NCBI GenBank assembly: GCA_017457085.1
Contig: JAFTID010000048.1
Span: 4,893-68,892 of the forward strand
Length of the DNA: 64,000 nucleotides
From: Phascolarctobacterium sp.
Lineage (GTDB): Bacteria > Bacillota > Negativicutes > Acidaminococcales > Acidaminococcaceae
Direction of reading: 5' to 3'
Shown: in pieces, positions 7,515-23,457 of the stretch
Position numbering within the stretch: position 1 is the first letter of the stretch
Layout of the letters: every line of letters begins with the position of its first letter
Notes under the pieces: generated by a model
Database searches by the model: none
Seen by the model: only the letters and a program-made list of their open reading frames with translations
What the model was told of the DNA's origin: nothing
Position numbers and translations under genes: made by a program

Positions 7515-7541
7515 CTATATAACTACTATATAGTGTATAGT
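7511..7541 (+). promoter_or_regulatory. Regulon-type promoter P5 (perfect 8+8 dyad)
   Basis: TTGACT-ATATAACTACTATATAGTG-TATAGT, with ACTATATA-N5-TATATAGT perfect. The stop codon of the PBP gene lies inside the -35. Confidence 0.6.
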
Positions 7542-7944: not shown

Positions 7945-8790
7945 TTATTTCTTTTTAACATTGAGGAAGATTTTATTAATGTATTCGTTGGTGTCCTTAT
8001 AGAACAAGTGGTTTTCAATGGTGAGTATGTAAATATCACCACTGGCTTCTAATTCGTTTAATTCCATAAATTTGTTGATTATATCTACAAGCTTAGGGAA
8101 GTTTTGGTAGAAGGTACCTTTAAAATAAATTTCCAGATATAATCCGGCAGGAATTTTTATCATGGACTTTGCTTTATGTTTAGGTGTGTTCAGAACAAAG
8201 GAGAAGTAAGCTTTCGTGGGATGGTAGTCTCGTTTTACAAACAAGTCATCTTGGGAGATTATCCAACCAACGTGACGTTCCAGAGATTTTTTGTTGTGGA
8301 AAGTATGTTGGGCATGCTTTGTAAATAAAACTACCCTGTCTTTACCAGTATCTTTGCTGTAAACGGGGGTAACCTTCATCAAGCGTTCTTCTTGGAATGT
8401 AAGCAAAGGCTTGAAAAAAACGAAAGGTCTCTCGCATTTTGCAATGTCGTTGATGGCTTCTAAAGATTTTATGATGGCTTGGTTTTCTTTGATGATAGCC
8501 ATACATTCTTTTTCTTTGCGGGCAACCAAGTCAATAAATTCATTTTTGCTACGGTTTTCAAGATAAGTTTTTATATCAGGTATGCTGATATTGAATGAGC
8601 GCAAGTTAACAATGATTTCTAAATCTAAATATTGTTGGATGGAATAATGCCTATAGCCTTTTTCGCAAATAAAATCGGGTGAGAGTAGGCCAATTTTGTC
8701 ATAATACAACAAGGTTTGCTTAGAGATACTAAAAAGATTTGCCAGTTCTCCTGCTGTGAAATAGGCATCGTCAGAATTATTGTTGCTCAT
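7945..8790 (-). CDS. MerR-family transcriptional regulator with a C-terminal GyrI-like effector-binding domain (BmrR/TipA-like architecture)
   Basis: 281 aa. The N-terminus YFTAGELANLFSISKQTLLYYDKIGLLSP...GYRHYS is a MerR HTH, followed by a coiled-coil linker. The C-terminus IPAGLYLEIYFKGTFYQNFPKLVDIINKFMELNELEASGDIYILTIENHL resembles GyrI-like domains. Confidence 0.8.
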   Translation of the reverse strand: MSNNNSDDAYFTAGELANLFSISKQTLLYYDKIGLLSPDFICEKGYRHYSIQQYLDLEIIVNLRSFNISIPDIKTYLENRSKNEFIDLVARKEKECMAIIKENQAIIKSLEAINDIAKCERPFVFFKPLLTFQEERLMKVTPVYSKDTGKDRVVLFTKHAQHTFHNKKSLERHVGWIISQDDLFVKRDYHPTKAYFSFVLNTPKHKAKSMIKIPAGLYLEIYFKGTFYQNFPKLVDIINKFMELNELEASGDIYILTIENHLFYKDTNEYINKIFLNVKKK

Positions 8791-8807: not shown

Positions 8808-8838
8808 TTGACTATATAACCAGTATATAGTTTAAAAT
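8808..8838 (+). promoter_or_regulatory. Regulon-type promoter P6 (perfect 8+8 dyad), divergent from the MerR gene
   Basis: TTGACT-ATATAACCAGTATATAGTT-TAAAAT, 19-bp spacer. It starts 18 bp from the merR-like start codon on the opposite strand. Confidence 0.6.
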
Positions 8839-8907: not shown

Positions 8908-9714
8908 ATGAAAAAGATTGCTATATATGGTAAGGGTGGCATTGGTAAATCTACAACGACGGCAAATGTGTCTGCTGCATTGAGCGAACAAGGCTTTAAG
9001 GTTTGCCAAATTGGTTGCGACCCTAAAAATGATTCCACACGTTTGTTGCTGGGAAGAATTTGCACCCAAACAGTTTTAGATGTTGTACGTGATAAAGAAG
9101 AAGTTTTAGCGGAAGATATTGTGCATATTGGCTACAACGGAATTAAGTGCGTGGAAGCTGGCGGTCCTGAACCGGGAGTTGGCTGTGCAGGACGTGGTAT
9201 TATTGTTGCTTTAGAAAAACTTCGTTCTTTAGACGTCATCGAAGACGAAGATGTTTTGCTTTACGACGTTTTAGGTGACGTGGTATGTGGTGGCTTTGCC
9301 GTGCCTATTCGTGAAGGCTACGCTACTGATATTTATATTGTTTCTTCCGGTGAGCTAATGAGTCTTTACGCTGCCAACAATATTGCCAAAGGCGTGAAGC
9401 GTTTTGCTTTGCGTGGTGGAGTTCGATTGGGCGGCATTATCGGTAACAGCCGTAACACTCCCAACGAAAAGAATTTGTTGGAAGAATTTGCCAAACGTTT
9501 AAATACAAAACTGATTGCCTTTATTCCCCGTGATGTTGTTGTGAATAAGGCAGAAAATAATCGCCAAACTGTTTTGCAATACGCACCGGAAAGTGAGCAA
9601 GCACAAATCTATCGTAATTTGAGCAAGGTGCTTGTGGAAAATGCAGAGCTTTCCGTGCCTACGCCAATGACCTTTGAAGAATTAGAAAAGCTGGTTGAAA
9701 AATATGGGAATTAA
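8908..9714 (+). CDS. Nitrogenase iron protein-like ATPase (NifH/BchL/CfbC family)
   Basis: The ATG at 8908 follows AGGGGGA. P-loop GKGGIGKST, switch I CDPKNDS, and both 4Fe-4S cysteines in GVGCAGRG and DVVCGGFAVP. Confidence 0.9.
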   Translation: MKKIAIYGKGGIGKSTTTANVSAALSEQGFKVCQIGCDPKNDSTRLLLGRICTQTVLDVVRDKEEVLAEDIVHIGYNGIKCVEAGGPEPGVGCAGRGIIVALEKLRSLDVIEDEDVLLYDVLGDVVCGGFAVPIREGYATDIYIVSSGELMSLYAANNIAKGVKRFALRGGVRLGGIIGNSRNTPNEKNLLEEFAKRLNTKLIAFIPRDVVVNKAENNRQTVLQYAPESEQAQIYRNLSKVLVENAELSVPTPMTFEELEKLVEKYGN

Positions 9715-10996
9715 AACGAAACGTTTTATCAATATTAGAAAAAGTTGTAGCTGCAGTATGCCCGGCGTGTGGCGAGCAGTTGCTTATATGGATGGTGTGG
9801 TTGTAATTTTTCACAGTCCCCGTGCGTGCGCGCATATTGCTCGTACCATGGATATCAATACTCATTATCGTGCTATGGGTGATGGTAGAAAAGAAGAACG
9901 TGCTTCCGTACCCTTGCTGTCTAGTCAATTAGAAGAAAAGCATTCCATTTTTGGTGGCATAGATAGATTGAAGAAGTGTATTGCCTACGCTATAGAAAAG
10001 TACGCTCCTCAATGCTTGGTACTGGGTGGTTCCTGCGTTGCCGGTGTAATTGGTGACGATGTGGAAGCTGTAGCCAAAGAAGTTGAGGAAGAATATAATT
10101 TGCCAGTCATTACGGTGGATAGCTACGGATTTTTAGATGGGGAATTTTTTGAAGGCTACTTTGAAATTACTTATAAATTGATTGATAGATATTTATATCC
10201 GCAAAAGTATATTCCCAAAACAGTTGTGCTGATTGGGGATAATGGTGGGCCGTGGGGACATTACGCCACAGAGGTTACAAGAATTTTAAAAGCAATGGGG
10301 GTTACTGTCATTGGACAGTTCCCTGGCTATATTACTCTTGAAGATTTACCGAAGATTACCAGTGCGGAAGCAATGGTAGTTTTAGGTGGTAAGGGGAATA
10401 CTCACGAAGGTCTTGAGTGTTTGACGAAGCGTTTGCAGGAAAAATTTGGCTTTAAATTTTTGCAGGACGTCTATCCTGTTGGCTGGCAAAGAACTCAGCA
10501 ATGGATTATTGAGATGGGCAAGCTGTTAAATTGTGAAGAACAGGCTGAAGAAGTTTTGCAGGCAGAGCGCCTTCTTATGGAGAAAAGCTTGGCACAATTT
10601 TTACCGGTTACTAAAAATAAAAAGGCTACTCTTTGCATTGGTAGGTGGTTGATGTACTTCCATCCAGAATCTATGCTGGGTGTGATTAATGCCTTGGAGT
10701 TAGATTTACAGGGAATAGTTTTGCTGGATGCGTTGGAAGCAGGCTATTTTGACGAGATGGTAGGCGCTTTGCGGAAGTATACCGATGTTCCTATTTACTC
10801 TAATCTTGACGGGGAACACTTACTGAAAGAAGCAGATGTAGTGCTGACAACTCACGAATTGCAGGATAAAAACTTAAAGCAGGTTTTCCTGCCCATGCTT
10901 CCCAAGGTGGGAACCCTCGGTGAAATTGAATTTATGCAAGTTATTTACAGAGTGCTGTGCAGTAAGCACAAGGGCGGAGGTTTAGTTTATGTATAG
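9695..10996 (+). CDS. Nitrogenase component-1-type oxidoreductase, alpha-like subunit (NifD/NifE/BchN family)
   Basis: 433 aa, overlapping the nifH-like stop (alternative start at 9704). Cys pattern C20-x24-C45 plus GGSCVAGVIGDD, typical of this family. Confidence 0.8.
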   Translation: MKNMGIKTKRFINIRKSCSCSMPGVWRAVAYMDGVVVIFHSPRACAHIARTMDINTHYRAMGDGRKEERASVPLLSSQLEEKHSIFGGIDRLKKCIAYAIEKYAPQCLVLGGSCVAGVIGDDVEAVAKEVEEEYNLPVITVDSYGFLDGEFFEGYFEITYKLIDRYLYPQKYIPKTVVLIGDNGGPWGHYATEVTRILKAMGVTVIGQFPGYITLEDLPKITSAEAMVVLGGKGNTHEGLECLTKRLQEKFGFKFLQDVYPVGWQRTQQWIIEMGKLLNCEEQAEEVLQAERLLMEKSLAQFLPVTKNKKATLCIGRWLMYFHPESMLGVINALELDLQGIVLLDALEAGYFDEMVGALRKYTDVPIYSNLDGEHLLKEADVVLTTHELQDKNLKQVFLPMLPKVGTLGEIEFMQVIYRVLCSKHKGGGLVYV

Positions 10997-12287
10997 CAAT
11001 AACCAATGGGGAAATATTTGTCATAGAGTTGACTGCTGTGCATTAAGTGGAGCTGCTGCCTTTGTGGCAGGCATTCCTGATGCAGAAATTTTGGTGAATG
11101 GTCCGTTGTGGTGTTACTTTTACGCATTACGTACTTTGGAACACGCTAAGTACGATATGGGGGAGCGCTTTCACGATTGTCAGCCCGATAATAATGCAAT
11201 TGTCTATGGAACGGAAAAGTTTTTGACGGAAGCTTTGAAGCGTTTGCTGGATAGTGGTCGTAAGCCTTCACTTTTATTGGTAGAAAATAGCTGCTCACTT
11301 AGTTTGATTGGCGATGATTTAGCAGGCATCGTTCGTAAAATGGAACTGCCTTATCCCTTTGTAACCATGGATTGCGGTGGCTTGGTTGGTGGTTTTGCCG
11401 AAGGTTATACCAAAGCGGCACTTGCTGTTTTGAAAAAATTTGCTGTTGAAAAGGTTGAAACCGTAGAAAACAGAGTAAATGTTTTAGGCTTAAGTGATTT
11501 TTATTACAACGGTATTGCTGATAGAAATGAAATAATTCGCTTGCTGACTAAGGCAGGCTACGAAATAAATGCTGTTCCCGGTGCGGGAAGCAGTTTGGAA
11601 AATTTACAAAAGATTGCTCGTGCTAAGCTAAACATTGTCTGCAACGAAGAGCTTGGCTTGCAATTGGCACAGTGTTTGGAAAAACGCTTTGGTACTCCTT
11701 ACGTTGTAGCAGGTATGCCTTACGGAATTGAGGACACTAAAAATTGGTTAACACGTATTCACGAAGCACTGCCTTGTGAAAATTTACAAGCAGTTTTTGA
11801 TGAAGGCACTGCTCAAATGGAACGCTTAACTGCTAAAGAAAATGACTATCGTGGTGTGTGGGGAAGCCTTTGGTTTGATAAGGTTATTCTTTCGGCAGCG
11901 GGGACCCAAGCTTTGTGTATGGCGCAGGCTTTACGTAACGAGTGGTTAGATATAGGAGAACTTACCGTAATTTGCCAACACGAGGTCAAAAGTGCAAACT
12001 ACTGCGACGTGGCAGATAAAGTTCTGGTCACTGGTAAAGATGTTGATGAAATTGAAAGGCTCTTCCAAAATGCAGAAGACGTATTACTTTTTGCGAGTAG
12101 CAGTGAAGCCAGCAATTTACGTCGTCGCGGGGCAACTTTTTACAGCTGTAACATTGCCTATCCATCAGCTGACGAAGTTTTACTGACGGAAACTCCCTTT
12201 GTGGGAATCAAGGGTGCGGCGCATATGCTAGAGCGTTTGTGGAATGTATATATTAAAAAACAAATGGATGAGCAGGTGAATAAATGA
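10989..12287 (+). CDS. Nitrogenase component-1-type oxidoreductase, beta-like subunit (NifK/NifN/BchB family)
   Basis: 432 aa, overlapping the upstream gene by 8 nt. Cys pattern C17-x24-C42 plus ENSCSLSLIGDD. Confidence 0.75.
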   Translation: MYSNNQWGNICHRVDCCALSGAAAFVAGIPDAEILVNGPLWCYFYALRTLEHAKYDMGERFHDCQPDNNAIVYGTEKFLTEALKRLLDSGRKPSLLLVENSCSLSLIGDDLAGIVRKMELPYPFVTMDCGGLVGGFAEGYTKAALAVLKKFAVEKVETVENRVNVLGLSDFYYNGIADRNEIIRLLTKAGYEINAVPGAGSSLENLQKIARAKLNIVCNEELGLQLAQCLEKRFGTPYVVAGMPYGIEDTKNWLTRIHEALPCENLQAVFDEGTAQMERLTAKENDYRGVWGSLWFDKVILSAAGTQALCMAQALRNEWLDIGELTVICQHEVKSANYCDVADKVLVTGKDVDEIERLFQNAEDVLLFASSSEASNLRRRGATFYSCNIAYPSADEVLLTETPFVGIKGAAHMLERLWNVYIKKQMDEQVNK

Positions 12288-13255
12288 AAAGATTGTTATT
12301 AATCTGCTTAATGCTATTTCTGGTTTGTCTTACTGGTGGCTGTGGCACACAAGAACCAGTTAATAATTCTGTACAGGAGAAAGTTGCTTACGAGGTTATT
12401 GATGAAGCTGGCAGAAAATTGACCTTTACAGAAAAACCTCAGAGAATTGCTTCCCTTACCTATGGCACAGATGAAATATTAACAGATTTAGTAGACACGA
12501 AACGAATTGTTGGCTATAGTCGTTGGGCTGGTGACCCGGAGATTACATTTATCACTAAGGAACAGGCACGTAAAGTTGGAAGGAAGCTAGAAGAAAATAC
12601 AGAAGCTGTTTTATCTGTTAAGCCTGATTTGGTGGTGGCGACCACTGCTTCCAATAGCGAAGTAATACATTCACTAGAGGCTTTAGGGTTAAAGGTGTAT
12701 TTAGCCGGAAGACCTAAAAACTATGAACAAATGAGAGTTAAGGTTTTAAAGCTTGGTGAAGCCGTTGGGGAAAAAGCCAAGGGTGAAGAGTTAGTAAAAC
12801 AAATGGACGAACGCATTGCCAAACTGGAAAGTAAGCTTTGCAAAATTCCTGATGATAAGCGTAAAACTGTTGTTGCCTTTAATTTTATTTCAGCTATGGG
12901 GCGCAAGGGTGATTTGATTGATAATATGCTAAACATGGCTCACGTTATCAATGGTGTTGCGCAAATACCTAATGAATTTATGACTAGCTATGTTAGCAAA
13001 GAGCAAGTAGTACGTATTAATCCAGATATTTTTCTTTTACCTACATGGAATTATGACAATAGACAGGATATAGAAGGATATCTTAATAGAGTACAGAATG
13101 ACCCTGCCTATAAAGACGTTAAAGCCATAAAAAATAATCAAATCAAATTTGTTTCGGATAAATATCGTTATGTAGCAAGTCATCATATTGTGGATGCGGT
13201 TGAAAATTTTGCTAAAGCTGTTTATCCGGAATATTTTAGAGGTGAAAAATATTGA
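12284..13255 (+). CDS. ABC-type periplasmic substrate-binding protein (FecB/BtuF-like), probable lipoprotein
   Basis: 323 aa with signal peptide ...LTGGCG. KPQRIASLTYGTDEILTDL and AKAVYPEYF match its paralogs. ATGA overlap with the upstream gene. Confidence 0.85.
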   Translation: MKRLLLICLMLFLVCLTGGCGTQEPVNNSVQEKVAYEVIDEAGRKLTFTEKPQRIASLTYGTDEILTDLVDTKRIVGYSRWAGDPEITFITKEQARKVGRKLEENTEAVLSVKPDLVVATTASNSEVIHSLEALGLKVYLAGRPKNYEQMRVKVLKLGEAVGEKAKGEELVKQMDERIAKLESKLCKIPDDKRKTVVAFNFISAMGRKGDLIDNMLNMAHVINGVAQIPNEFMTSYVSKEQVVRINPDIFLLPTWNYDNRQDIEGYLNRVQNDPAYKDVKAIKNNQIKFVSDKYRYVASHHIVDAVENFAKAVYPEYFRGEKY

Positions 13256-14289
13256 TTGTTAAAAGAAAGAATAGTGGTCTTGCGCTGATTGTGTTAGGTA
13301 TTGTTCTGGTAATAGTTGCTTTAGGCTCACTAACCTTTGGGCAAATTGATGTGCCTTTGGAAAGTACGCTGGCAATTATTTGTGGAAAGTTAGGCTTACC
13401 TTTTATTAATGAAGGAAACTTCACCAAGGAACAGCTTGCTGTCATTTGGTTTATCCGTATGCCACGTATGCTGGTTGGCTTGCTTGTAGGTGCAACCCTT
13501 GGTATTTCCGGTGCAGTAATGCAGGGCATTTTTAGTAATCCCTTGGCAGACCCCGGTCTAATTGGCGTTTCTGCAGGGGCGGCGACTGGTGCAGTACTTT
13601 CTATTGCGCTGGGTAGTGCTACAAGTAGTATGTACACTATGCCCGCTTTTGCCTTTTGCGGAAGTATTTGCGCCGTGTGCTTGACAGTTTTCCTTGCCAT
13701 GCGCAATGGCAAGATTCCTGTAATGACCTTGCTCCTCGCTGGTGTTGCCGTTGGCATGCTTTTAGGCGCAGTAACTTCTGGTTTGCTTACCTTTATGAAT
13801 GAGCAAAAGCTACAACAATATTTGTTCTGGATGGTTGGCGGTCTTGACTATCGTCGTTGGGAACATGTTTACCTTGCAGTTGGCCCCGTCCTGACAGGCA
13901 TTTTCATAATGCTTTTGATGGCTCGTCATTTAAATATCTTAGTACTTGGGGAAACAGAAGCCAAGGCTGTGGGAATGCCTGTTACTGCTTTCCGCATGGG
14001 TTTGCTTTTCGTATCTGCCATGACTACGGCAACTTCTGTTTGCGTAAGTGGTAGCATTGGTTTTGTTGGGTTGGTCATTCCCCACATGATGCGCATGCTG
14101 CTTGGTCCGGACCATCGCGTGTTGTTACCGGCAAGTGCTCTTGGTGGCGCTATGTTTTTAGTTTTGTGCGACACTTTGGGCAGAATAGTTATTCCTCCCT
14201 CCGAAGTTAGGGTAGGTATAATGACTGCGCTTTTAGGTACACCCTATTTCTTATATTTGCTTAGAAGAATGCAAAAGCAATTCTTCTAG
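13252..14289 (+). CDS. FecCD/BtuC-family ABC import permease
   Basis: 345 aa, polytopic. Contains GISGAVMQGIFSNPLADPGLIGVSAGA and a C-terminal GIMTALLGTPYFLYLL, both typical of FecCD permeases. Confidence 0.9.
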   Translation: MIVKRKNSGLALIVLGIVLVIVALGSLTFGQIDVPLESTLAIICGKLGLPFINEGNFTKEQLAVIWFIRMPRMLVGLLVGATLGISGAVMQGIFSNPLADPGLIGVSAGAATGAVLSIALGSATSSMYTMPAFAFCGSICAVCLTVFLAMRNGKIPVMTLLLAGVAVGMLLGAVTSGLLTFMNEQKLQQYLFWMVGGLDYRRWEHVYLAVGPVLTGIFIMLLMARHLNILVLGETEAKAVGMPVTAFRMGLLFVSAMTTATSVCVSGSIGFVGLVIPHMMRMLLGPDHRVLLPASALGGAMFLVLCDTLGRIVIPPSEVRVGIMTALLGTPYFLYLLRRMQKQFF

Positions 14290-14302
14290 AATTGAGGTAA
14301 AA

Positions 14303-17300
14303 ATGAGTAAGATTTTATTTTTGACAAACGTTATCCGTCGTATGGGAATGATGCAGCAAACTGTGGAACGTTTGCAACGTGAGCAAAAGGTTAGCAATGA
14401 TTGTGCTTGCCATTGGATAACAGATCAAACCGTATGGGATAAAAAATGGGAAGAAAACCTGCGTACTACGGACGTTGTACTTTTAAAATGGATGGGTAGC
14501 GGTTTGGACACACCTTTTCTGAAAAAATTAGTACAGTTTTTAGATGCACGCAAAATTCCTTATTACATAGATGCTGCTGGTACTAATGAAGGCGAGCTGA
14601 AATTTGGCTTCACCCCTGAACAGCTGGCAGCCTTGAAAAAATATACTTCCTTTGGCGGCGAGCGTAACTACTATAATTTGTGGCAGTACCTTGACCAATG
14701 CTTGGAAGGTAAAGGCAAAGAGATTGAAGCACCTGACCCGATTCATTGGTGCGGAATTTATCACCCCCGTGCGAAAAAGGTTTATACAGATTTGGCAGAA
14801 TACCAAGCGGATTTCTGCGATGCTTCTAAACCGACTATTGGTATGCTTTTCTATCGTGACGAATGGGTTTGGGGAGATTTAACTTACCAAAGCGCAACCA
14901 TCGAAGAAATTGAAGCCCAAGGTATGAACGCAATTTGCGTATTCAGTAATGGTATGCCCATTGAAGAAATGGGGATGCCTAGCTTGACAAAAGTTTTTGA
15001 TAGCTTCTTCTGCAAAGATGGAGTGCCTGCCATTGATGCTCTTATCAATGTAATGAAATTTTCATTGAGCAGTAGCGGTACTATTACCGTAGACTATTTC
15101 AAAAAATGGAACGTGCCTATTTTGGCAGGCTATACCATTATGACTGACTATGATGAATGGAAGGAAAGTTTCGAGGGGATGAATCCCATGGAAGTTTCCA
15201 TTGCCATTTCCTTACCAGAATTTGACGGAACCATCCACGGCGTACCCATTGGTTACAAAAAAGTTTTGGAAAATGGTGACGTGCGTTACTTGCCCATCGT
15301 AGAACGCGTTCAACGTATGGTAAGTAAGGCTCGCAAATGGGCAAGCCTGCGCCGTAAGGCTAATGCAGATAAAAAAATTGCTATTATCTTCCATAATTAT
15401 CCGCCCCGTAATTCCAATATTGGCAGCGCCCTTGGCTTGGACACCATTGAAAGTATCCGTCGTGTGTTGGTTGCAATGAAAGAACGTGGCTACAAAGTGG
15501 ATAGTATTCCGGAAGATACTAAGGAATTTATCAAGGAGCTTACCTCCAACGCTACCAATGACAAGGCGTTGCTGACAGAAAAACAAATTGCCGAAGCCCA
15601 AAAGATTACAGGCGCTGAATATAAAAAATTCTTTGCTACCATTGAACCCAAGGTACAAGCACAACTTATTAAAGATTGGGGCGAAGCACCGGGAAGCGTT
15701 ATGGAATATGATGGCGACCTGTTGGTACCGGGAACTATGAACGGCAATGTTTTTGTTACGGTGCAACCACCTCGTGGTTTTGGTGATGATCCTAGCAAAA
15801 TTTACCATTCTCCTTACTGCGCACCTACTCATCATTATTTAGGGTTCTATCGTTGGGTGCGTGATATTTGGCAAGCAGATGCTGTTGCTCATATTGGTAC
15901 TCATGGTTCCTTAGAATGGTTGCCAGGCAAAAACGCAGGTCTTGACTGCACCTGCTATCCTGATTTGGCATTAGGTGACCTGGTTAATATTTATCCCTAT
16001 AATATTGCGATTACCGGCGAGGGTATTCAGGCAAAACGTAGAGGTGCTGCCTGCTTGATTGAACATTTGCCTGCTCCTCAAAGCAAGGCAGATGTTTATG
16101 ACGAGCTGGAAGAACTGGAAAAAATTATGGATGAGTACGTGCATTTTGAAACTACTCAACCGGAAAACTTGCCTAGTTTAGAAGCACTGGTAAAAGAAAA
16201 GGTTGTTGCTGCCAATTTGCAGGATGAAGTTGAATATGACGAAAGCAAACCTTTTGGCGAATATGTAATGGCATTGCACAACTACATTACAGATTTAAAA
16301 AACCTTGAAGTACACGTTGGCTTACATATTTTGGGGCAACCTCCTGTTGAGGAAGGCTTGACTGAATATTTGTGGATGCTTACCCGTCTTAACAATGGTG
16401 ACATTCCTAGCTTGAGCCAAGCGTTGTCCCAATACTATGGCTTTGATTACTACTATTTGCTGGAAAACAGCAGCTTGATTTACGAACCACTGAATATTAC
16501 CTACGCAGTATTGCTTGATAAAATTACAGACCAAAGCCAAGAGATTATCAAGATTTTGCAGGACAAAGATTTTAGTGCAGTAGCCTTGCAGGAAGTTTTG
16601 GCATTGACTTGGGTACAGGAAGGCAGTGCTGAATTTAAGGAACAGCTGGAAAAAGTTTGCACTTATATTTGTGAAACAATCTATCCTAATTTACAGCTCA
16701 CTACCCAAGAACAAGACAATATGCTTCGTGGCTTTGAAGGTCAGTATGTAGAACCTGGTCCTTCCGGAGCACCCACTAGTGGTTGTGCAGATTTACTGCC
16801 TACTGGTCGCAACTTTTATGGCGTAGACCCGCGCACCTTGCCAACTCCTGCGGCATGGGAAATTGGCAAAACCTTGGGTGACCAAGTTATTGAACGCTTT
16901 ATTGCGGAAGAGGGTCACTATCCAGAAAATATCGGTATCGTATTGTGGAGTGGGGCCAATATGCGCAGTCATGGTCAATGCGTGGCAGAATTCCTCTATC
17001 TGATGGGCGTACGCCCCATTTATCAAGCAGGCAGTATGCGTGTTAATGGCTTGGAACCTATTCCTTTGACAGAACTGCGCCGTCCCCGCATTGACGTTAC
17101 TGCAAGAATAAGTGGCTTATTCCGTGATACCATGCCTACCATTATGGAACTCCTTGACCAAGCAACGCTGCTTGTTGGTGGTTTGGACGAAGATTTGGAA
17201 CTGAACTATGTGCGTAAGCATTTACTGGCAGATAGTGCAGAGCTGGAAGCTGAAGGTATGAGCAAGGAAGATGCTTGGCGACAAGCTGCCTTTAGAATTT

Positions 17301-18022
17301 TTGGCGACGAGCAAGGCGTTTATGGTGCAGGTGTTGCGGCTTTACTGGAAGCTAAGAACTGGGAAACCATTGACGACATTGCAGAAGTTTATGTGCGTTG
17401 GGGTGGTCATGCTTACGGTGGCAAGGTTAAGGGTAAATTCTTGCCCCAACAATTCCGTAAACGTATGGGCAGCTTAGACATTACTATTAAAAATGAAGAC
17501 AATCACGAAACTAATATGCTTTCCAGTGATGACTACAACGCTTATCACGGTGGTATGATTGCTGCCGTTCGAAGCATTAAGGGTAGTGCGCCTCGTTCCT
17601 ACTGTGGTGATAGTACGGACAGAAGCAAAATTAAAATGTATAGCGTGCAAGAACAAGCTAAACGCATTTTCCGCAGTGAATCCATTAATCCTAAATATAT
17701 TGAAGGCATGATGAAGCATGGCTACAAAGGCGCAGCAGATTTGGCAAATATGATTGCTCACAGTTATCAATGGGATGCGACCAGCGCTGTCATGGAAGAT
17801 TGGATGTACGAAAAGTACGCAGAAAAATATACCTTCGATCCCAAGGTGCAGGAATGGTTGCGTGACGTGAATCCTTGGGCATTGCAACGTATGGCAGAGG
17901 TTCTTCTGGAAGCAGAAAAACGTGGCTTGTGGAATGCGAAGCCTGAAACTAAGAGCGAGCTGCAAAAATTGTACCTTTCCATCGAGGGCGAGATTGAGGA
18001 ACGCAGTGATGCAAACTCCTAA
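14303..18022 (+). CDS. cobN: CobN/ChlH-family large chelatase subunit
   Basis: 1239 aa with the family hallmark GTHGSLEWLPGK. Size and layout are typical of CobN. Confidence 0.9.
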   Translation: MSKILFLTNVIRRMGMMQQTVERLQREQKVSNDCACHWITDQTVWDKKWEENLRTTDVVLLKWMGSGLDTPFLKKLVQFLDARKIPYYIDAAGTNEGELKFGFTPEQLAALKKYTSFGGERNYYNLWQYLDQCLEGKGKEIEAPDPIHWCGIYHPRAKKVYTDLAEYQADFCDASKPTIGMLFYRDEWVWGDLTYQSATIEEIEAQGMNAICVFSNGMPIEEMGMPSLTKVFDSFFCKDGVPAIDALINVMKFSLSSSGTITVDYFKKWNVPILAGYTIMTDYDEWKESFEGMNPMEVSIAISLPEFDGTIHGVPIGYKKVLENGDVRYLPIVERVQRMVSKARKWASLRRKANADKKIAIIFHNYPPRNSNIGSALGLDTIESIRRVLVAMKERGYKVDSIPEDTKEFIKELTSNATNDKALLTEKQIAEAQKITGAEYKKFFATIEPKVQAQLIKDWGEAPGSVMEYDGDLLVPGTMNGNVFVTVQPPRGFGDDPSKIYHSPYCAPTHHYLGFYRWVRDIWQADAVAHIGTHGSLEWLPGKNAGLDCTCYPDLALGDLVNIYPYNIAITGEGIQAKRRGAACLIEHLPAPQSKADVYDELEELEKIMDEYVHFETTQPENLPSLEALVKEKVVAANLQDEVEYDESKPFGEYVMALHNYITDLKNLEVHVGLHILGQPPVEEGLTEYLWMLTRLNNGDIPSLSQALSQYYGFDYYYLLENSSLIYEPLNITYAVLLDKITDQSQEIIKILQDKDFSAVALQEVLALTWVQEGSAEFKEQLEKVCTYICETIYPNLQLTTQEQDNMLRGFEGQYVEPGPSGAPTSGCADLLPTGRNFYGVDPRTLPTPAAWEIGKTLGDQVIERFIAEEGHYPENIGIVLWSGANMRSHGQCVAEFLYLMGVRPIYQAGSMRVNGLEPIPLTELRRPRIDVTARISGLFRDTMPTIMELLDQATLLVGGLDEDLELNYVRKHLLADSAELEAEGMSKEDAWRQAAFRIFGDEQGVYGAGVAALLEAKNWETIDDIAEVYVRWGGHAYGGKVKGKFLPQQFRKRMGSLDITIKNEDNHETNMLSSDDYNAYHGGMIAAVRSIKGSAPRSYCGDSTDRSKIKMYSVQEQAKRIFRSESINPKYIEGMMKHGYKGAADLANMIAHSYQWDATSAVMEDWMYEKYAEKYTFDPKVQEWLRDVNPWALQRMAEVLLEAEKRGLWNAKPETKSELQKLYLSIEGEIEERSDANS

Positions 18023-19052
18023 AATAAAAAACTTGGTGCTAAGTTTAACAGGACAATGTAATTTTGCTTGTCGCTACTGTTACGCTGCAGAGCACGATAA
18101 AAACATAATGAACGTAGAAACTGCTCTTGCCGCCATTGATTTGGCGGTAAGTAGTTTACCCGTCAATGAAAAGTTCATTATTCAGTTTAGTGGTGGTGAA
18201 CCTCTATTAAATTTTAAGGTCTTGCACGCGGCGGTGAGCTACGTTCAGAAAAATAATATACCTGCCGTTTTGCAAATTCAGACTAATGGTTCGCTCTTGA
18301 CTGACCAAATTGCTCAGTATCTTTTTAAAAATAAGGTTGCCATTGGGGTAAGTCTTGATGGTAAACCTAACGTGAACGATAAATTGCGTTTGACCAAGGA
18401 CGGAAAAGGGGCAACCAATTTAATCTTACACGGTTTGGAAGTTTTGAGGCGTAATAACATTGCCTGCGGTCTTACCTGCGTGGTAACGGCAGATAATGTT
18501 GAGGAACTTTCAGGAATTGTGGATATAGCTTATTTTTTGGGCAACGTGCGTAAGATTGGCTTCGATTTATTGCGAGGACAGGGGCGTGGCAGCGGACTAG
18601 TACCTCCTTCGGAAGCACAAATGTTAAAAAGTATGGAAGAGGTTTACGAACGGGTAGAGCAGTTAAGTAGATTGGCAGGCTATAAAATTGTTATCTCCCA
18701 AGCAGAAAGGGCAAAGCTTCTGTGTACGGAAAGCTGTCGACAGTTTGGACATTGCTACGCTATGAACGGAGAAGCTGCCTTTGTAGATGCCAGTGGTAAA
18801 ATTTACGCCTGTTCTTCCTTGATTGGCAACGAGGATTTTTATCTTGGCAATGTGCAGGACGGTTTAGACAATGCGCTTGTAGAAAAGGTAAGTAAGAAAA
18901 TTTTTCAGAGTATGTCCTTTTGCAGGGAGTGTGCAGATTTTAAATTGTGTGGAGGCGGCTGCTTCGCCCGTTGGTACGGGAGTGGGGAGAAAGTTGCCTA
19001 CAAAAGCGAGTGCGCAATGAAGCGTGTTTCCATTGGGCAGATAAAATCATAA
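18009..19052 (+). CDS. Radical SAM enzyme with a SPASM domain (anaerobic sulfatase maturase / AhbD / NirJ-like class)
   Basis: The ATG at 18009 overlaps the cobN stop, and the track's 5' extension lies inside cobN. CNFACRYC (CxxxCxxC) at the N-terminus and CRECADFKLCGGGC near the C-terminus. Confidence 0.85.
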   Translation: MQTPKIKNLVLSLTGQCNFACRYCYAAEHDKNIMNVETALAAIDLAVSSLPVNEKFIIQFSGGEPLLNFKVLHAAVSYVQKNNIPAVLQIQTNGSLLTDQIAQYLFKNKVAIGVSLDGKPNVNDKLRLTKDGKGATNLILHGLEVLRRNNIACGLTCVVTADNVEELSGIVDIAYFLGNVRKIGFDLLRGQGRGSGLVPPSEAQMLKSMEEVYERVEQLSRLAGYKIVISQAERAKLLCTESCRQFGHCYAMNGEAAFVDASGKIYACSSLIGNEDFYLGNVQDGLDNALVEKVSKKIFQSMSFCRECADFKLCGGGCFARWYGSGEKVAYKSECAMKRVSIGQIKS

Positions 19053-19056
19053 ATAA

Positions 19057-19096
19057 AAAGGCTGACTGGAATTGAAAGGTTCTTGTCAGCTTTTTG
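19057..19096 (+). terminator. Intrinsic terminator ending the nif-like/cobN operon
   Basis: GCTGAC...GTCAGC stem followed by TTTTT. Confidence 0.55.
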
Positions 19097-19117
19097 CATT
19101 CTTGTGAAAAATAAGTG

Positions 19118-19148
19118 TTGCGTATATAGGAAGTATATAGTTTATAAT
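19118..19148 (+). promoter_or_regulatory. Regulon-type promoter P7
   Basis: TTGCGT-ATATAGGAAGTATATAGTT-TATAAT, 19-bp spacer. Confidence 0.55.
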
Positions 19149-19201
19149 CAGACGTATATCTTGATAAGAATAATTACTAAACGTTAGGAGCGAGTGAGAA
19201 A

Positions 19202-20233
19202 ATGAAAAGAACAGCAGTATATCCTTTTACCGCCATTGTTGGGCAAGAGGATATGAAAATGGCATTAATCTTGAACGTAATAAATCCTGCATTGGGAGGA
19301 GTGTTGATTAAAGGTGAAAAAGGAACAGCAAAATCAACAGCAGTACGTGCCTTGGCAGAACTGCTCCCTGCTATGCAAGCTGTCCATGGTTGCAGATTTA
19401 ATTGTGATCCTCATAATGCTAACTTGTTTTGCGATGACTGCGCAAAGAATTATGCATCTAATGCAGTTTGTCACATTGAAGACATTAAAATGCGTGTGGT
19501 GGAACTGCCTGTTAGCGCTACTGAAGATAGAGTAGTAGGTACTTTGGATATTGAACACGCTATCAAACATGGTGAAAAGAAATTTGAAGCAGGTATTCTG
19601 GCGCAAGCTAACCGCAATATTTTATATGTTGACGAAATAAACCTTTTGGATGACCACGTTGTAGACGTTTTGTTAGATGCTGCTGCAATGGGTATTAATA
19701 CTGTTGAACGTGAGGGAGTTTCCTATTCTCACCCGGCACGTTTCGTTTTGGTAGGAACAATGAATCCGGAAGAAGGGGATATTCGTCCTCAATTACTTGA
19801 CCGTTTTGGTCTTTCCGTTGTTGTTACAGGTGAACACGACCCCAGCCAACGTGTTGAAGTTATAAAACGACGTTTGGCTTATGAAGATAACGCAGATGAT
19901 TTCATTGCAGGCTATCAAGAGGAACAGCAAGCTCTTGCTGAAAAAATTATGCAAGCACGCGAAGCATTGCCCAATGTTACCATCAGTGATGCACTTTTGG
20001 AAACCGTTGCCAAATTGGCAGTAGAGCTGGGCGTTGATGGTCACCGTGCAGATATTACCGTAATTAAAACTGCTTTGACCTTGGCTGCCTTTAATGAACA
20101 TAACGAAGTAGAGCTTGTTGACGTAAAAGCTGCGGCAAAACTTGTACTGCCTCATCGTATGCGTCGTCGTCCTTTTGAAGAAGGACAATTAGATTGGAAT
20201 AAAGTTGAAGCTTTCTTGGGACAGGAAGCCTGA
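19202..20233 (+). CDS. chlI: ChlI/BchI-type AAA+ chelatase subunit
   Basis: 343 aa. [40 protein letters not shown] is nearly the canonical ChlI N-terminus. Walker B YVDEINLL is present. Confidence 0.9.
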
Positions 20234-20247
20234 AAGGAGCATGCGGA

Positions 20248-22179
20248 ATGTTACTGCACGCTATATATCCCTTTACTGCTGTAGTTGGTTTGGAGCAGGT
20301 GAAAAGGGCAATTCTTATTGCGTTGGTTAACCCTCATGCTGGTGGGCTATTAATTGGTGGGCGCAAGGGTACGGCAAAAACAACTTTAGTCCGTGCTGCC
20401 CAAGAACTGCTTACGCCACGCAATATTATAGAATTACCCTTAAATGTTACGGAAGATATGCTTTTTGGCAGTATAGATATTGAATATGCTGTTAGTAAGG
20501 GTGAACGTCGCTTCTTGCCAGGCATTTTAGGAAAAGCTAACGACAATGTGCTTTATATAGATGAAGCAAACCTGCTTCGCCAAGAACTTTTAACTGCAGT
20601 CCTTGATGCCAATACTGCTGGCTTTAACCATGTGGAACGTGATGGTATTAGCTTCACCCACGAGGTTAACTACACTGTCATTGGCACTATGAATCCAGAA
20701 GAAGGAATTTTGCCGGGACATATCCTTGATAGATTTGGAATGTATGTAGATGTACAAGGCGAAGCAGAGATTGCTGATAGAGTGGAAATTATTAAACGCG
20801 CCTTGGCGTATGGCAAAGACATTGCGGGATTTAGAAAGCAGTATGCCGAAAGCGTTGCTGAGCTGTGTGAACTGGTAAATGTTTCACGTGAAACATTGAA
20901 GCAGGTAGAAGTAACTGAGGCTATGATGCAACTGGCGGCGCAAATGTGCGCTCAAGCCTTCTGCGCAGGACATAGGGCAGAAATTTATCTGCTTGAAGCT
21001 GCCCGTGCCATTGCTGCTTTAGAAAAACGCACCTACATTTTACCAAAGGATATGCAGGAAGCCGCTGTTTACGTTTTGGCTCATCGCATGCGCACTCCGC
21101 CGGAAGCTCAGGAAATGGAACAAGACCAACAGGAAAATGAAGAGCAGGAGCAAAACGAAGAACAACAATCTGATGAACAAGACGATGCTCCTGAACAACC
21201 TGATGAACTTCCTCCACCTCCACAGCTGCCTGATAACGAAGATGATGGCAGTGACGAAGACAGTGATGAAAATAATGAGCAAGATGAAAAACAGGAACAA
21301 GAGCAAAATAGCAACCAGCTTGCTCCCGAAGAACAGATTGCTGATATTGACAGAAGCTTTAAAATTCCCAAGCTTGTCCTTGATATGGGCAAGAATACTA
21401 CCTTGCGGAGAGGTAGTGGCAAACGTAGCGCGACCAAGACTGATTTGAAGCAAGGTCGTTACGTGCGGGCAGAGCTTCCCAAAGCAAAGGTAGAGGACTT
21501 GGCTTTTGATGCTACCATTCGTGCGGCGGCGCCCTACCAAAGAATGCGCGAGGCAAATGGATGCGCCTTGAACATTCAAAAAGAAGACCTGCGCCAAAAG
21601 GTAAGGGAAAAACGCATTGGTAACACCTTCCTATTTGCCGTAGATGCCAGCGGTTCCATGGGAGCACGGGAAAGAATGCGTGCCGTGAAAGGGGCAATCT
21701 TTTATATGCTCCAAGATGCGTACCAAAAACGCGACCGAGTTGGCATGCTAGCCTTTCGTCGTCAAAAGGCAGAGGTGCTTTTACCAATTACTAGAAGCGT
21801 TGACCTTGCCCAAAAATGTTTAGCAGAAATGCCTACGGGCGGGAAGACTCCTCTTGCTGACGGCTTGGCTACTGCGCTTTTAACCTTGGCAAGGCTCAAC
21901 AAAAAGGATAGCGAGCTGGAACCAATCTTAGTTCTGGTAACTGATGGTAGAGCCAACGCTGTGGAAGAAGACGGCGGCGACCCTGTTACTGCTGCTATCA
22001 AAATGGCAGAAAAAATTCGTAAAGCAAAAATAACTTCCGTTGTCATTGACACGGAAAATGATTTTATAAAATTAGGCGTAGCTAAAAAGGTTGCCCAAGC
22101 TATGGGCGCAAGCTACTACAGTTTGAACCAGCTTTCCAAGGAACAGATTTTGAGGATTGTAAGAAATTTGGGAGAGTAA
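20248..22179 (+). CDS. chlD: ChlD/BchD-type chelatase subunit (AAA-like N-domain, acidic/Pro linker, vWA domain)
   Basis: 643 aa. ChlI-like N-terminus, then a long E/D/Q-rich linker with PPPPQLP. The C-terminal vWA domain has MIDAS DASGSM. Confidence 0.9.
   Translation: MLLHAIYPFTAVVGLEQVKRAILIALVNPHAGGLLIGGRKGTAKTTLVRAAQELLTPRNIIELPLNVTEDMLFGSIDIEYAVSKGERRFLPGILGKANDNVLYIDEANLLRQELLTAVLDANTAGFNHVERDGISFTHEVNYTVIGTMNPEEGILPGHILDRFGMYVDVQGEAEIADRVEIIKRALAYGKDIAGFRKQYAESVAELCELVNVSRETLKQVEVTEAMMQLAAQMCAQAFCAGHRAEIYLLEAARAIAALEKRTYILPKDMQEAAVYVLAHRMRTPPEAQEMEQDQQENEEQEQNEEQQSDEQDDAPEQPDELPPPPQLPDNEDDGSDEDSDENNEQDEKQEQEQNSNQLAPEEQIADIDRSFKIPKLVLDMGKNTTLRRGSGKRSATKTDLKQGRYVRAELPKAKVEDLAFDATIRAAAPYQRMREANGCALNIQKEDLRQKVREKRIGNTFLFAVDASGSMGARERMRAVKGAIFYMLQDAYQKRDRVGMLAFRRQKAEVLLPITRSVDLAQKCLAEMPTGGKTPLADGLATALLTLARLNKKDSELEPILVLVTDGRANAVEEDGGDPVTAAIKMAEKIRKAKITSVVIDTENDFIKLGVAKKVAQAMGASYYSLNQLSKEQILRIVRNLGE
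20878..20897. repeat. Second copy of the 20-bp palindrome AATGTTTCACGTGAAACATT, inside chlD-like coding sequence
   Basis: Exact match to 6493-6512. It encodes VNVSRETL. Confidence 0.8.
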
Positions 22180-22197: not shown

Positions 22198-23457
22198 ATG
22201 TCTTGGTTGCAATTTAAGGAATACTTTATAAAACGTAAAAAAATACACTTCACCATCATCCTTATCCTGGGTATTCTTTTGTTGAGTAGTTTAGCATCCA
22301 AGCATCTTCTGTTTTCTAATAAAGCTAAAACGAAGATTATAAAACCAATTGTAAAAACCACGCTAGTTAGTGCTAAACCTATGTATAAAACAATTTCTCT
22401 TTTTGGAAAGACGAAGGCTTTGGCAAAAATAAACATCGTTAATAAATACGCAGGCACCATTAGTGCTGTGCATGTAGATTTAGGCGATGAAGTAAAAGCT
22501 GGCGATATGCTTTTAGAACAGGATTTGAAAGATATTGAGCTAAAACTTGCTGAAGCTAAAGCAAAGTATGGTGAATACCATGGTAAAGCTTTGGCCTACG
22601 AAACAGAATATAATGCTCAAATTGAAAGATATAAGGCAACTTATGAGTTACATAAAACAAATTATGAGCGTTACTTGAAATTGCACGAAGCAGGTGCTGT
22701 TTCTAAATTAGAAGTTGATAATGTGAAGCAAACGATGCTTTCTTCAAAAGCAAATTACGAAGAGCTTGCACAGCAAGCGATGATTGATGATATGCCTGCA
22801 GCAGTATTTGCACGAATGCAGGATGGTGAGCAAAAGTATAATGATTATCTTCTTTTACAAAACCAAAGGGAAGATATGACTTTGAGAGCTACGCGCAATG
22901 GAATTATTAGCTACCGTAATGCAGAGGTTGGTAATTACATTGCTGCTGGAACTAAGTTGTTTACCATTGTGGATAATAGCAAAGTTTTTGTAGATTGTAT
23001 TGTGTCTGAAAGTGATTCTGCCTTGCTTCAAGTGGGTCAAGAAGTTGAAGTAGATATTGAAGCGCTTGGCAACGAAGCAAAAGGTAAGATTATTTTTATC
23101 AGCCCTGCTGCTTCTGACGAAAACAATGGATTTTCTGTAAGGCTTGCCCTTGAAGGCGCAGATGCGAATATTAAAGAAGGCTTATTTGCCAAGAGCAAGT
23201 TCAATTATTTGCAAAAAGAAAATACCATTTATCTCAATAAAACTACAATTATTGAAAAAAATGGTAAGAACTATGTTTTTGTGTTAAATAAAAATAACAA
23301 GGTTGAGCAACGAGAAATTAAAACTGGCATCCGCAATGATATTAATATAGAAATTATTAAAGGTATCAGTGCTGGCGATTGCGTTGTTACTAATAACCTT
23401 TCACGTTTGCGTAATGGTATGACTGTGGAAATTGCAGAAGCAGGGGACGATAAGTAA
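22198..23457 (+). CDS. RND efflux periplasmic adaptor (HlyD/MFP family)
   Basis: 419 aa with an N-terminal TM segment, coiled-coil region and beta-barrel. Starts 18 nt after the chlD-like stop. Confidence 0.8.
   Translation: MSWLQFKEYFIKRKKIHFTIILILGILLLSSLASKHLLFSNKAKTKIIKPIVKTTLVSAKPMYKTISLFGKTKALAKINIVNKYAGTISAVHVDLGDEVKAGDMLLEQDLKDIELKLAEAKAKYGEYHGKALAYETEYNAQIERYKATYELHKTNYERYLKLHEAGAVSKLEVDNVKQTMLSSKANYEELAQQAMIDDMPAAVFARMQDGEQKYNDYLLLQNQREDMTLRATRNGIISYRNAEVGNYIAAGTKLFTIVDNSKVFVDCIVSESDSALLQVGQEVEVDIEALGNEAKGKIIFISPAASDENNGFSVRLALEGADANIKEGLFAKSKFNYLQKENTIYLNKTTIIEKNGKNYVFVLNKNNKVEQREIKTGIRNDINIEIIKGISAGDCVVTNNLSRLRNGMTVEIAEAGDDK

Follow-up and report, generated by a model that had tools for sequence, protein, structure and literature searches.

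The 64 kb window analysed here, meaning the whole stretch of Phascolarctobacterium sp. DNA, contains a cluster of nine plus-strand genes at 8908-22179 that encode a nitrogenase-like reductase (NflHDK), a class I ATP-dependent chelatase (CobN with ChlI and ChlD), a radical S-adenosylmethionine (radical-SAM) enzyme and two components of an importer. The cluster is real and conserved; within the nitrogenase-like tetrapyrrole-enzyme theme, it represents a variant under B12 regulation. Genes were called by combining an open reading frame (ORF) listing with Pfam and NCBIfam profile searches and sequence searches against solved structures; the ORF listing and the profile searches agree with the gene set, limits, strand and composition that an earlier sequence-only reading had claimed. 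The features of the cluster are as follows.

8808-8838, plus strand: nfl promoter-operator (-35 TTGACT, 19-nt spacer with the palindrome TATATA-N5-TATATA, -10 TAAAAT)
8908-9714, plus strand: NflH (Fer4_NifH, E 3.6e-109)
9704-10996, plus strand: NflD, alpha-like subunit, 430 aa (Oxidored_nitro, E 1e-50)
10989-12287, plus strand: NflK, beta-like subunit (Oxidored_nitro, E 3e-52)
12284-13255, plus strand: periplasmic binding protein (PBP; Peripla_BP_2), lipoprotein-type, cluster A, siderophore/heme/B12 class
13252-14289, plus strand: FecCD/BtuC-like ATP-binding cassette (ABC) permease (Pfam FecCD, 318 bits)
14303-18022, plus strand: CobN, 1239 aa, large subunit of a class I ATP-dependent chelatase (CobN-Mg_chel, 1252 bits)
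18009-19052, plus strand: radical-SAM/SPASM enzyme (Pfam Radical_SAM, Fer4_12), its start overlapping the cobN stop
19056-19095, plus strand: terminator-like hairpin and U-run (-19.7 kcal/mol, z = -5.4)
19118-19148, plus strand: chlI-chlD promoter-operator, a second copy that matches the motif exactly
19202-20233, plus strand: ChlI-like AAA+ motor subunit (Pfam AAA_lid_2, Mg_chelatase)
20248-22179, plus strand: ChlD-like subunit with an AAA-like domain, an acidic/proline-rich linker and a VWA domain (Pfam VWA_2)

Most adjoining genes of the nfl operon overlap or abut, which matches the expectation for a single operon. For NflD, the ATG at 9704 is the probable start; it overlaps the nflH stop and regains a conserved N-terminus with SCSCS. 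The 150-nt gap between the radical-SAM gene and chlI contains the terminator-like hairpin, which separates two transcription units, and the same MerR-type promoter-operator stands at both starts; the two co-regulated operons described earlier are therefore borne out. In a 97%-identical relative (locus L004) the same gap is only 15 nt long, indicating that the split into two units is recent. A scan for consensus promoters and terminators found nothing above shuffles. As had been claimed, no further nif, bch or cfb genes occur among the annotated ORFs of the window, and TonB receptors and a cobalamin pathway are both present in it.

The family placement of NflHDK rests on NCBIfam hidden Markov model (HMM) cut-offs, solved relatives and ligand alignment. 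The translation of NflH shows both the P-loop and the two cluster cysteines that define a nitrogenase Fe-protein: its Walker A motif reads GKGGIGKS, and the cysteines lie in GVGCAGRG and VVCGGFA. NflH scores 393.3 bits against nifH (cut-off 394.35), 384.3 against CfbC (402), 229 against BchL (345) and 179 against BchX (331), and its nearest solved relatives are true NifH (327 bits), MarH (298 bits) and BchL (174 bits). NflD and NflK fall below all NCBIfam cut-offs for NifD/E/K/N, BchN/B/Y/Z and CfbD. In particular, the top score of NflD is 97 bits, where the cut-offs are at least 268; NflD reaches 82 bits on the NifD model (cut-off 654), and the NifK model gives 30 bits (cut-off 427). The top match of NflK is BchB at 105.7 bits (cut-off 490), and the other scores are 41 bits for BchN (420), 53 for BchZ (529), and 45 and 23.5 for CfbD (268). 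Among solved structures, MarD of Rhodospirillum rubrum (9D9U, 83 bits) comes closest to NflD, and BchB (3AET_B, 58.7 bits) to NflK.

A search of 1.84 billion representatives returned only 54 relatives at E ≤ 1e-30. Among the 102 nearest full-length representatives, none came near the NifD/NifE cut-off (best E-value 1e-66) and none matched CfbD at 1e-40. A tblastn search against plasmids found distant NifE, NifK and VnfD only. By sequence, the NflDK family is placed among the uncharacterised nitrogenase-like proteins.

Three cysteines of NflD (Cys20, Cys45 and Cys114) lie at P-cluster positions in 24 of 24 homologues, sister clades included, as do three of NflK (Cys17, Cys42 and Cys102; 24 of 24). 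In the C-terminal halves of the 24 homologues there is no conserved Cys or His to serve as ligands of the iron-molybdenum cofactor (FeMo-co) or L-cluster (alpha-Cys275, alpha-His442), and the alignment of NflD to 9D9U_A shows no Cys in the region of the MarD cofactor ligand Cys270. NflDK has no nitrogenase-type catalytic cofactor site. By analogy with the dark-operative protochlorophyllide oxidoreductase (DPOR), the pattern of six cysteines and no cofactor ligand fits an enzyme in which an Fe-S site hands electrons directly to a bound organic substrate.

Four known enzyme types were considered for NflHDK and rejected. Nitrogenase proper (Nif/Vnf/Anf) is excluded by the NifD/NifK scores and the absent FeMo-co ligands, despite the NifH-like features and the six P-cluster cysteines. 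For DPOR and chlorophyllide oxidoreductase (COR; BchLNB, BchXYZ), all equivalog scores are below cut-off and the window has no other bch genes. CfbCD of F430 synthesis is set aside by CfbC and CfbD scores below cut-off and by the presence of two distinct D/K-like subunits instead of a single D. Methylthio-alkane reductase (Group IV-C) is likewise rejected, with no counterpart of MarD Cys270 and no NifB-like gene in the window. The nif-like proteins thus lie outside the Nif, Bch and Cfb families by HMM cut-off and differ from MarD in lacking its cofactor ligand.

The cluster is conserved as a unit, which the sequence-only reading had named as a check. The exact NflK protein occurs on metagenome contigs with identical gene order, and NflD homologues carry the names Acidaminococcaceae, Phascolarctobacterium or Pectinatus. 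A scan of one genome per species yielded 41 loci, nearly all from Negativicutes, with taxa that include P. faecium DSM 14760, Pectinatus frisingensis, Pelosinus, Megamonas, Selenomonas, Schwartzia and Sporomusaceae. Synteny by tblastn over Acidaminococcaceae, Sporomusaceae and Selenomonadaceae shows that nflHDK is kept with a permease, PBP, cobN, chlI-chlD and cbiZ in three gene orders. Across Acidaminococcaceae the order is nflHDK-PBP-FecCD-cobN-radical-SAM gene, followed by chlID or by cbiZ and a TIM-barrel gene; in Pelosinus, two riboswitches precede nflHDK, a TonB-dependent receptor (TBDR), a C-N hydrolase, cbiZ, cobN and a PBP, with genes that abut or overlap; in Selenomonadaceae, it is cbiZ-cobN-PBP-chlID-nflHDK-FecCD-ATPase. 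An association that survives rearrangement is good evidence for functional coupling.

More distant NflD relatives (23-31% identity) form sister clades with three kinds of locus, namely NflD-NflK-(330-aa protein)-ABC ATPase-ExbB-ExbD-TonB; a MerR gene beside riboswitch-TBDR-PBP-NflD-NflK; and PBP-NflD-NflK. Genes for TonB/ABC import thus accompany the wider family in every case and a B12 riboswitch in at least one; CobN is sometimes missing. Separately, in some Phascolarctobacterium genomes (L008 347-2514, L023 3-5136) the main cluster is closely preceded by another NflK of divergent sequence (28-29% identity), accompanied by a PBP or a second CobN (59% identity), which suggests paralogous systems for different substrates.

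The cluster is part of the B12 regulon. P. faecium DSM 14760 has an Rfam cobalamin riboswitch (RF00174) directly before nflH (102 bits; L042), and Pelosinus has two in tandem at the same place (113 and 120 bits; L030). A covariance model built from these three riboswitches (R1) detects the element ahead of nflH in five additional loci (L021, L036, L040, L027 and L026), and upstream of TBDR-PBP-NflD-NflK in a sister clade (L046). In the window itself, control appears to be exerted through a repeated promoter-operator, and the features that bear on it are listed here.

7945-8790, minus strand: MerR/BmrR-like regulator, divergent from nflH, with helix-turn-helix (HTH) and GyrI-like ligand-binding domains
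111-141, 7511-7541, 8808-8838, 19118-19148, 30254-30284, 32765-32795, 38532-38562 and 59727-59757, plus strand: copies of the promoter-operator
728-2782, plus strand: cbiZ and an AP_endonuc_2 TIM-barrel gene, with the promoter-operator copy at 111-141
7576-7893, plus strand: 105-aa His-rich protein, with its own promoter-operator copy at 7511-7541
32794-38419, plus strand: operon of a TonB receptor, a 185-aa protein, a PBP, an ABC ATPase and CbiK, with the promoter-operator copy at 32765-32795

The promoter-operator, written as TTGNNTATATA-N5-TATATAGTTTANAAT with a 19-nt spacer and 31 nt overall, occurs eight times in the window, always on the plus strand, and not once in 100 shuffles. Its targets are nflH, chlI, cbiZ with the TIM-barrel gene, the small His-rich ORF, a 183-aa secreted protein, the operon from TonB receptor through PBP and ABC ATPase to cbiK, a long cbi operon, and a fourth TonB receptor. 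The long cbi operon runs from an energy-coupling factor (ECF)-type transporter through cbiD, F, G, H, J, ET, A, B, cobD, cbiP, cobA and cbiC. The eight copies appear to govern the whole B12 island, comprising the cbi pathway, cbiZ, receptors, nfl and chlID. The same element is found upstream of nflH in nine other loci (L004, L006-L008, L010, L013, L016, L018 and L041), which are from other Phascolarctobacterium lineages and Pectinatus.

The regulator at 7945-8790 matches Pfam MerR_1, weakly matches the GyrI-like family, and aligns to BmrR structures over its full length (residues 7-270); its gene is kept divergently upstream of nflH in Phascolarctobacterium loci. The two features of a MerR/BmrR-type activator regulon are both present, namely a protein with an HTH and a ligand domain, and palindrome-bearing promoters with 19-nt spacers. 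This BmrR-like protein is a candidate activator that probably binds the TATATA-N5-TATATA promoters. A ligand-binding MerR-family activator of B12 genes would be unusual in itself, and the promoter-operators of the window occupy places where cobalamin riboswitches would usually stand.

A whole-window Rfam scan at the gathering threshold gave no match, and a 40-kb E-value scan gave noise only. A short targeted scan, and that alone, placed an AdoCbl-II riboswitch (RF01689) at 59863-59995 on the plus strand with 37.9 bits against a gathering score of 36.5; it lies in the leader of the fourth TonB receptor (60412-63102), downstream of a promoter-operator copy. Short targeted Rfam scans of the leaders at 100-760 and 2700-3100 gave no match. 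A non-coding leader of about 590 nt (142-727, plus strand) extends from the promoter copy at 111-141 to cbiZ; with no Rfam match at E ≤ 10, it could contain an undescribed regulatory RNA.

Overall, the riboswitches upstream of nflH in relatives, together with the operator that nfl and chlID have in common with the cbi operon, strongly favour a cobalamin link, which the sequence-only reading had offered as one of three hypotheses.

The chelatase subunits were compared with both inserting and removing enzymes. CobN scores 906.6 bits on TIGR02257 (cobalto_cobN), above the cut-off of 822, and 793 on the BchH model, below its cut-off of 829. Its solved relatives are M. tuberculosis CobN (714 bits), another CobN (625), ChlH (532) and HmuS (418). 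It carries an HIGTHGS motif and, in domain V, an NxDxxE...SDDYxxYHGGM-type motif (here NEDNHE...SDDYNAYHGGM) that aligns with the two solved CobNs, unlike ChlH. The motif that defines HmuS, LSLDHxxEFMGG with His1209 and Glu1212 (PMC12583661), is absent from CobN, where the corresponding stretch is LSSDDYNAYHGG. On these comparisons, the large subunit is classed as CobN-type and not HmuS-type. Among the motor subunits, ChlI scores 508 bits on TIGR02442 (putative cobaltochelatase) and 434.5 on BchI/ChlI (cut-off 467); ChlD scores 648 bits on TIGR02442 and 470.9 on BchD/ChlD (cut-off 499.55), and has a DASGSM metal-ion-dependent adhesion site (MIDAS) motif in its VWA domain. CobS/CobT partners and a context of late cobalt insertion were not found, the partners being ChlI/ChlD-type and the window having CbiK and the anaerobic cbi set. 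The HmuS paper notes that most CobN-superfamily clusters outside the anchors cannot be annotated (PMC12583661).

These data bear on the proposal, also made from the sequence alone, that imported heme or another metalloporphyrin is demetallated anaerobically for its iron in the manner of HmuS, the CobN homologue of Bacteroidota that is a proven heme dechelatase (PMC12583661). TonB receptors and PBPs of the heme/siderophore class do lie nearby, and a CobN-like dechelatase is thus on record; against this stand the CobN-type HMM score and domain-V motif, the missing HmuS motif, the position of HmuS as the weakest full-length structural relative of CobN, the control of the system by cobalamin riboswitches in relatives and jointly with cbi genes here, and the presence of CbiZ in the operon. 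Heme demetallation is highly improbable on this evidence.

The import genes are less specific in their matches. The PBP at 12284-13255 has only weak matches to solved siderophore-, heme- and B12-binding proteins, and the top NCBIfam match of the permease is BtuC (294 bits). The importer is split, with a PBP and a permease but no ATPase in the nfl operon, and a PBP and an ATPase (36531-37379) but no permease in the cbiK operon; that ATPase is proposed to serve the importer of the nfl operon. With receptors, PBP and permease accompanying the cluster, the earlier link to import machinery stands.

The cbiZ product matches Pfam CbiZ, the adenosylcobinamide amidohydrolase family, at 186 bits, and the adjoining AP_endonuc_2 TIM-barrel gene has a weak Pfam match (26 bits) and homologues that are TIM-barrel proteins without informative names. 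By synteny, this pair directly follows the radical-SAM gene within the nfl operon of relatives (L009, L010, L012, L021, L030, L033 and L042). A C-N hydrolase of the nitrilase superfamily recurs in nfl loci (L030 14488-15339, L004 7343-8125, L032, L040, L008, L014 and L049) and directly follows NflK in a sister clade; it is absent from the window, and in L004 it lies between the small ORF and the MerR gene.

The radical-SAM enzyme has a CxxxCxxC motif (CNFACRYC), a Cys-rich SPASM-type C-terminus and no N-terminal peptide-recognition domain. All its HMM scores are below cut-off, including PapB at 162 bits (340) and AhbC at 78 bits (650); its solved relatives are CteB (102 bits, aligned from CteB residue 96 on) and anSME (62 bits), so that its closest kin are thioether-forming maturases and anSME. 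No fetched locus outside the Acidaminococcaceae branch carries it. The small His-rich protein (105-110 aa) contains two repeats of the form HAKYR...H...GKS.EE.H, begins with MTC, ends in a Cys/His tail and has no family assignment. It is 58-97% identical over about 25 loci adjoining nfl clusters, its P. faecium homologue (L042 19371-19694) lies between the radical-SAM gene and cbiZ, and its AlphaFold model is of low confidence (predicted local distance difference test, pLDDT, 64) with two helical hairpins. It is probably an accessory of the system, perhaps a metallochaperone or a substrate of the radical-SAM enzyme.

The first part of the cbi operon (38600-46520, plus strand) encodes two proteins of no family (209 and 551 aa), then a fused ECF-type ATPase, a CbiQ-like T component, a 477-aa beta-propeller protein and an MsbA-like ABC exporter, all before cbiD. 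A phosphoglycerate-mutase-like gene (cofactor-independent, Metalloenzyme/PhosphMutase; 55731-56855, plus strand) lies between cobD and cbiP and may encode a non-orthologous phosphatase or kinase of nucleotide-loop assembly. No cbiL, cobA/cysG or hem genes were found anywhere in the 64-kb window.

In another explanation, which takes up the novel reduced metallo-tetrapyrrole listed by the sequence-only reading, a new reduced tetrapyrrole cofactor of cobalt or another metal is made under B12 scarcity by an F430-like sequence of chelatase, amidase/amidotransferase and nitrogenase-like reduction. Chlorophyll and F430 synthesis have as their hallmark the pairing of a chelatase with a nitrogenase-like reductase, the CfbC score of NflH nearly equals its NifH score, and SPASM radical-SAM enzymes modify tetrapyrrole side chains (AhbC scores 78 bits here). 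The operons nevertheless contain import genes and, in several lineages, CbiZ; the CfbD scores (45 and 23.5 bits) are far from 268, the radical-SAM enzyme is restricted to one branch, and there is no nearby candidate enzyme to use such a cofactor. A new cofactor is very unlikely.

The best reading is that the module is part of a cobamide acquisition and biosynthesis regulon, and neither a nitrogenase nor a heme-iron system. Beyond this, we lean modestly towards a module of the B12 regulon in which an imported corrinoid or precursor undergoes ATP-driven cobalt chelation and low-potential reduction, its presumed substrate and chemistry being deduced from the gene content. Low B12 would turn the operons on, by way of the cobalamin riboswitch in relatives and probably of the BmrR-like ligand-binding activator at the TATATA-N5-TATATA promoters in this genome. 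A TonB-dependent receptor, the PBP and the BtuC-like permease, powered by the ATPase from the cbiK operon, would import the corrinoid or precursor. In the cytoplasm, CobN with ChlI/ChlD would chelate cobalt at the expense of ATP, in a direction that we infer, and NflH would pass low-potential electrons, at an ATP cost, to the P-cluster-position Fe-S site of NflDK and from there to the bound macrocycle or cobalt. The product would then join the resident anaerobic cbi pathway, while CbiZ and the TIM-barrel enzyme, putatively of the CbiR superfamily, would trim the nucleotide loops of salvaged cobamides, in relatives with the C-N hydrolase as well. The radical-SAM enzyme and the small His-rich protein presumably also have roles in the module. 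Chelation followed by reduction has precedents in ChlHID and DPOR (chlorophyll), CfbA and CfbCD (F430), and CobNST and CobR (aerobic B12).

Several observations weigh against cobalt chelation and reduction of an imported corrinoid. The nfl leader of the window has no riboswitch in Rfam scans, with a MerR-type operator in its place, and none was found in the Selenomonadaceae loci. The PBP and the TonB receptors are not clearly BtuF/BtuB-like, their scores falling well short of the cut-offs, and the solved proteins closest to the PBP bind siderophores or heme. The substrates of CbiZ are cobalt-containing adenosylated corrinoids, so that there is no obvious need for a cobalt-inserting chelatase in that branch, and the genome already encodes CbiK. 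Finally, one Acidaminococcaceae locus (L016) has nflHDK and the radical-SAM gene without an intervening cobN, and the sister-clade loci have NflDK with receptor and PBP and without CobN; the reductase may therefore act independently of the chelatase.

An alternative is that the two enzymes are unlinked neighbours, with CobN-ChlID a high-affinity ATP-driven cobaltochelatase for de novo synthesis and NflHDK serving the B12 regulon separately, for example as a generic low-potential reductase that converts Co(II) to Co(I) ahead of adenosylation. Besides the loci that have NflDK without CobN, it draws on the CobN score above the equivalog cut-off and on the lack of CobR-type reductases in most cobamide producers (PMC6461909). 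It has to accommodate the sharing of an operon by nflHDK and cobN across three rearranged architectures, with overlapping or abutting genes, as well as the CbiK already in the genome, and we consider it clearly unlikely.

Another alternative is cobalt recovery. An imported inert cobalt complex (unusable Co(III) corrinoids or a Co(III) chelate) would be stripped by hydrolases, and reduction by NflHDK would labilise the metal; in the last step, CobN-ChlID would take over the cobalt, either as a dechelatase or by handing it straight to sirohydrochlorin, for the cbi pathway. Cobalt uptake is commonly under B12 riboswitches, and the same riboswitches control the nfl system in relatives. Moreover, the recurrence of three kinds of hydrolase (CbiZ, the AP_endonuc_2 TIM barrel and the C-N hydrolase) suggests dismantling, the conserved small His/Cys-rich protein resembles a metal carrier, the minimal sister-clade module consists of receptor, PBP and NflDK only, the nearest solved relatives of the PBP include siderophore binders, and HmuS, a CobN homologue, has proven dechelatase activity (PMC12583661). 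Conversely, the cobyric acid released by CbiZ is directly reusable, which makes cobalt removal seem unnecessary, and CobN is without the HmuS-specific motif and resembles cobalt-inserting CobNs. To our knowledge there is no precedent for the enzymatic removal of cobalt from a corrin. Cobalt recovery is a doubtful explanation; among the alternatives to the favoured module it ranks first, ahead of unlinked neighbours, a new cofactor and heme demetallation.

The most far-reaching interpretation is put forward tentatively, at somewhat less than even confidence: NflHDK may be the first nitrogenase-like enzyme of cobamide metabolism, working with a class I chelatase and an importer, so that B12 is rebuilt from scavenged macrocycles or cobalt is stripped from unusable corrinoids, for which latter activity we know of no enzyme. 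One idea, by analogy with the 'tetrapyrrole precursor salvagers' of Shelton 2019, is the salvage of oxidised tetrapyrrole precursors (PMC6461909). Taken together, the composition, conservation, import context, novelty and cobalamin-pathway link claimed by the sequence-only reading are upheld, and its heme-demetallation hypothesis is disfavoured.

Most nitrogenase-like clades are without known function; a 2026 review regards this as the main challenge for the field and finds that gene context has been of little help (PMC13474568). The nfl context is unusually informative, combining a B12 riboswitch, CobN, CbiZ and an importer. Cultured bacteria that carry the system, namely P. faecium DSM 14760, Pelosinus, Pectinatus and Selenomonas, make its function directly testable. 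If true, the reading may resolve why anaerobes that have the early-cobalt pathway and CbiK keep CobN/ChlID-type chelatases. Phascolarctobacterium makes propionate via B12-dependent enzymes, and the system also bears on corrinoid exchange in gut communities. Further, nfl genes inflate 'nifH/nifD' counts in gut metagenomes (PMC8597730).

Other genes of the window lie outside these subjects. A resistance-nodulation-division (RND) efflux pump begins 18 nt after the chlD stop (adaptor 22198-23457, permease 23457-26522, plus strand), followed by a TonB receptor (26639-28522, plus strand); the G+C content falls from 0.46 to 0.37 at the chlD/pump junction, and the pump is not kept with the cluster elsewhere, though here it is probably co-transcribed. 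Two AAA_14/DUF4143 ATPase genes and a Schlafen AlbA_2/HATPase_c_4 gene, at 5119-6348 (minus strand), 28838-30175 (plus) and 31054-32556 (plus), have no B12 relation by annotation and may be mobile or defence-related insertions.

The literature searched contains no description of this combination of nitrogenase-like reductase, CobN and importer, and with the NCBIfam cut-offs and solved structures it gives no characterised equivalent, as the earlier reading had supposed. A 2026 Chemical Reviews article assigns a function to four Group IV systems and no others, namely Nfa, CfbCD, MAR and ISR, and describes Group VI as uncharacterised and linked to tetrapyrrole genes (PMC13474568). Dos Santos et al. 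(2012) reported NifHEN-like genes beside ABC transporters in Firmicutes and methanogens, without FeMo-co ligands and with no function assigned; the B12 link, CobN and TonB context of the nfl cluster are not given there (PMC3464626). Mise et al. (2021) remarked on the oddness of some 'nifD' reads from P. faecium and Selenomonas. Group VI of Elusimicrobia (Meheust 2020), which we compared by its published description, resembles the nfl system in having a trio without FeMo-co ligands, radical-SAM neighbours and a proposed tetrapyrrole role. Its NflH is about 40% identical to NifH (PMC13474568), whereas NflH here aligns to true NifH at 327 bits, and Group VI loci are rich in radical-SAM genes, while neither CobN nor an importer nor a riboswitch is reported from them (bioRxiv 10.1101/765248).

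MarHDK (Group IV-C) includes the nearest solved relative of NflD (MarD, 83 bits), together with MarH at 298 bits, and the P-cluster Cys positions are kept; NflHDK differs in having no Cys270 counterpart, no MarB/NifB nearby and no sulfur-metabolism context, at about 25-30% identity. HmuS, in the hmu operon of Bacteroidota, is similarly a CobN-superfamily protein beside a TonB receptor that processes an imported metallo-tetrapyrrole; in the nfl system the HmuS motif is absent, similarity to HmuS is well below that to CobN, regulation is by B12 and not by heme or iron, and a nitrogenase-like reductase is present. CobNST/CobR shares the ATP-driven CobN-type large subunit and the need for a reductase after chelation. 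By contrast, the motor subunits here are ChlI/ChlD and not CobS/CobT, the host has an anaerobic pathway with CbiK, the adjacent reductase is nitrogenase-like and not a flavoprotein, and an importer lies in the same operon.

Also comparable are enzymes of the DPOR, COR and CfbCD type, which combine an ATP-dependent NifH-like donor with NifDK-like subunits without FeMo-co ligands, and which reduce a bound metallo-tetrapyrrole in a pathway that also contains a chelatase. CfbD has two conserved Cys per subunit at P-cluster positions, and DPOR has three Cys and one Asp (PMC3464626, PMC13474568). NflDK differs from both as a heteromer with six conserved cysteines at P-cluster positions and with scores far below the cut-offs of 268-490, and the nfl genes, unlike those of DPOR and CfbCD, stand in import operons under B12 control.

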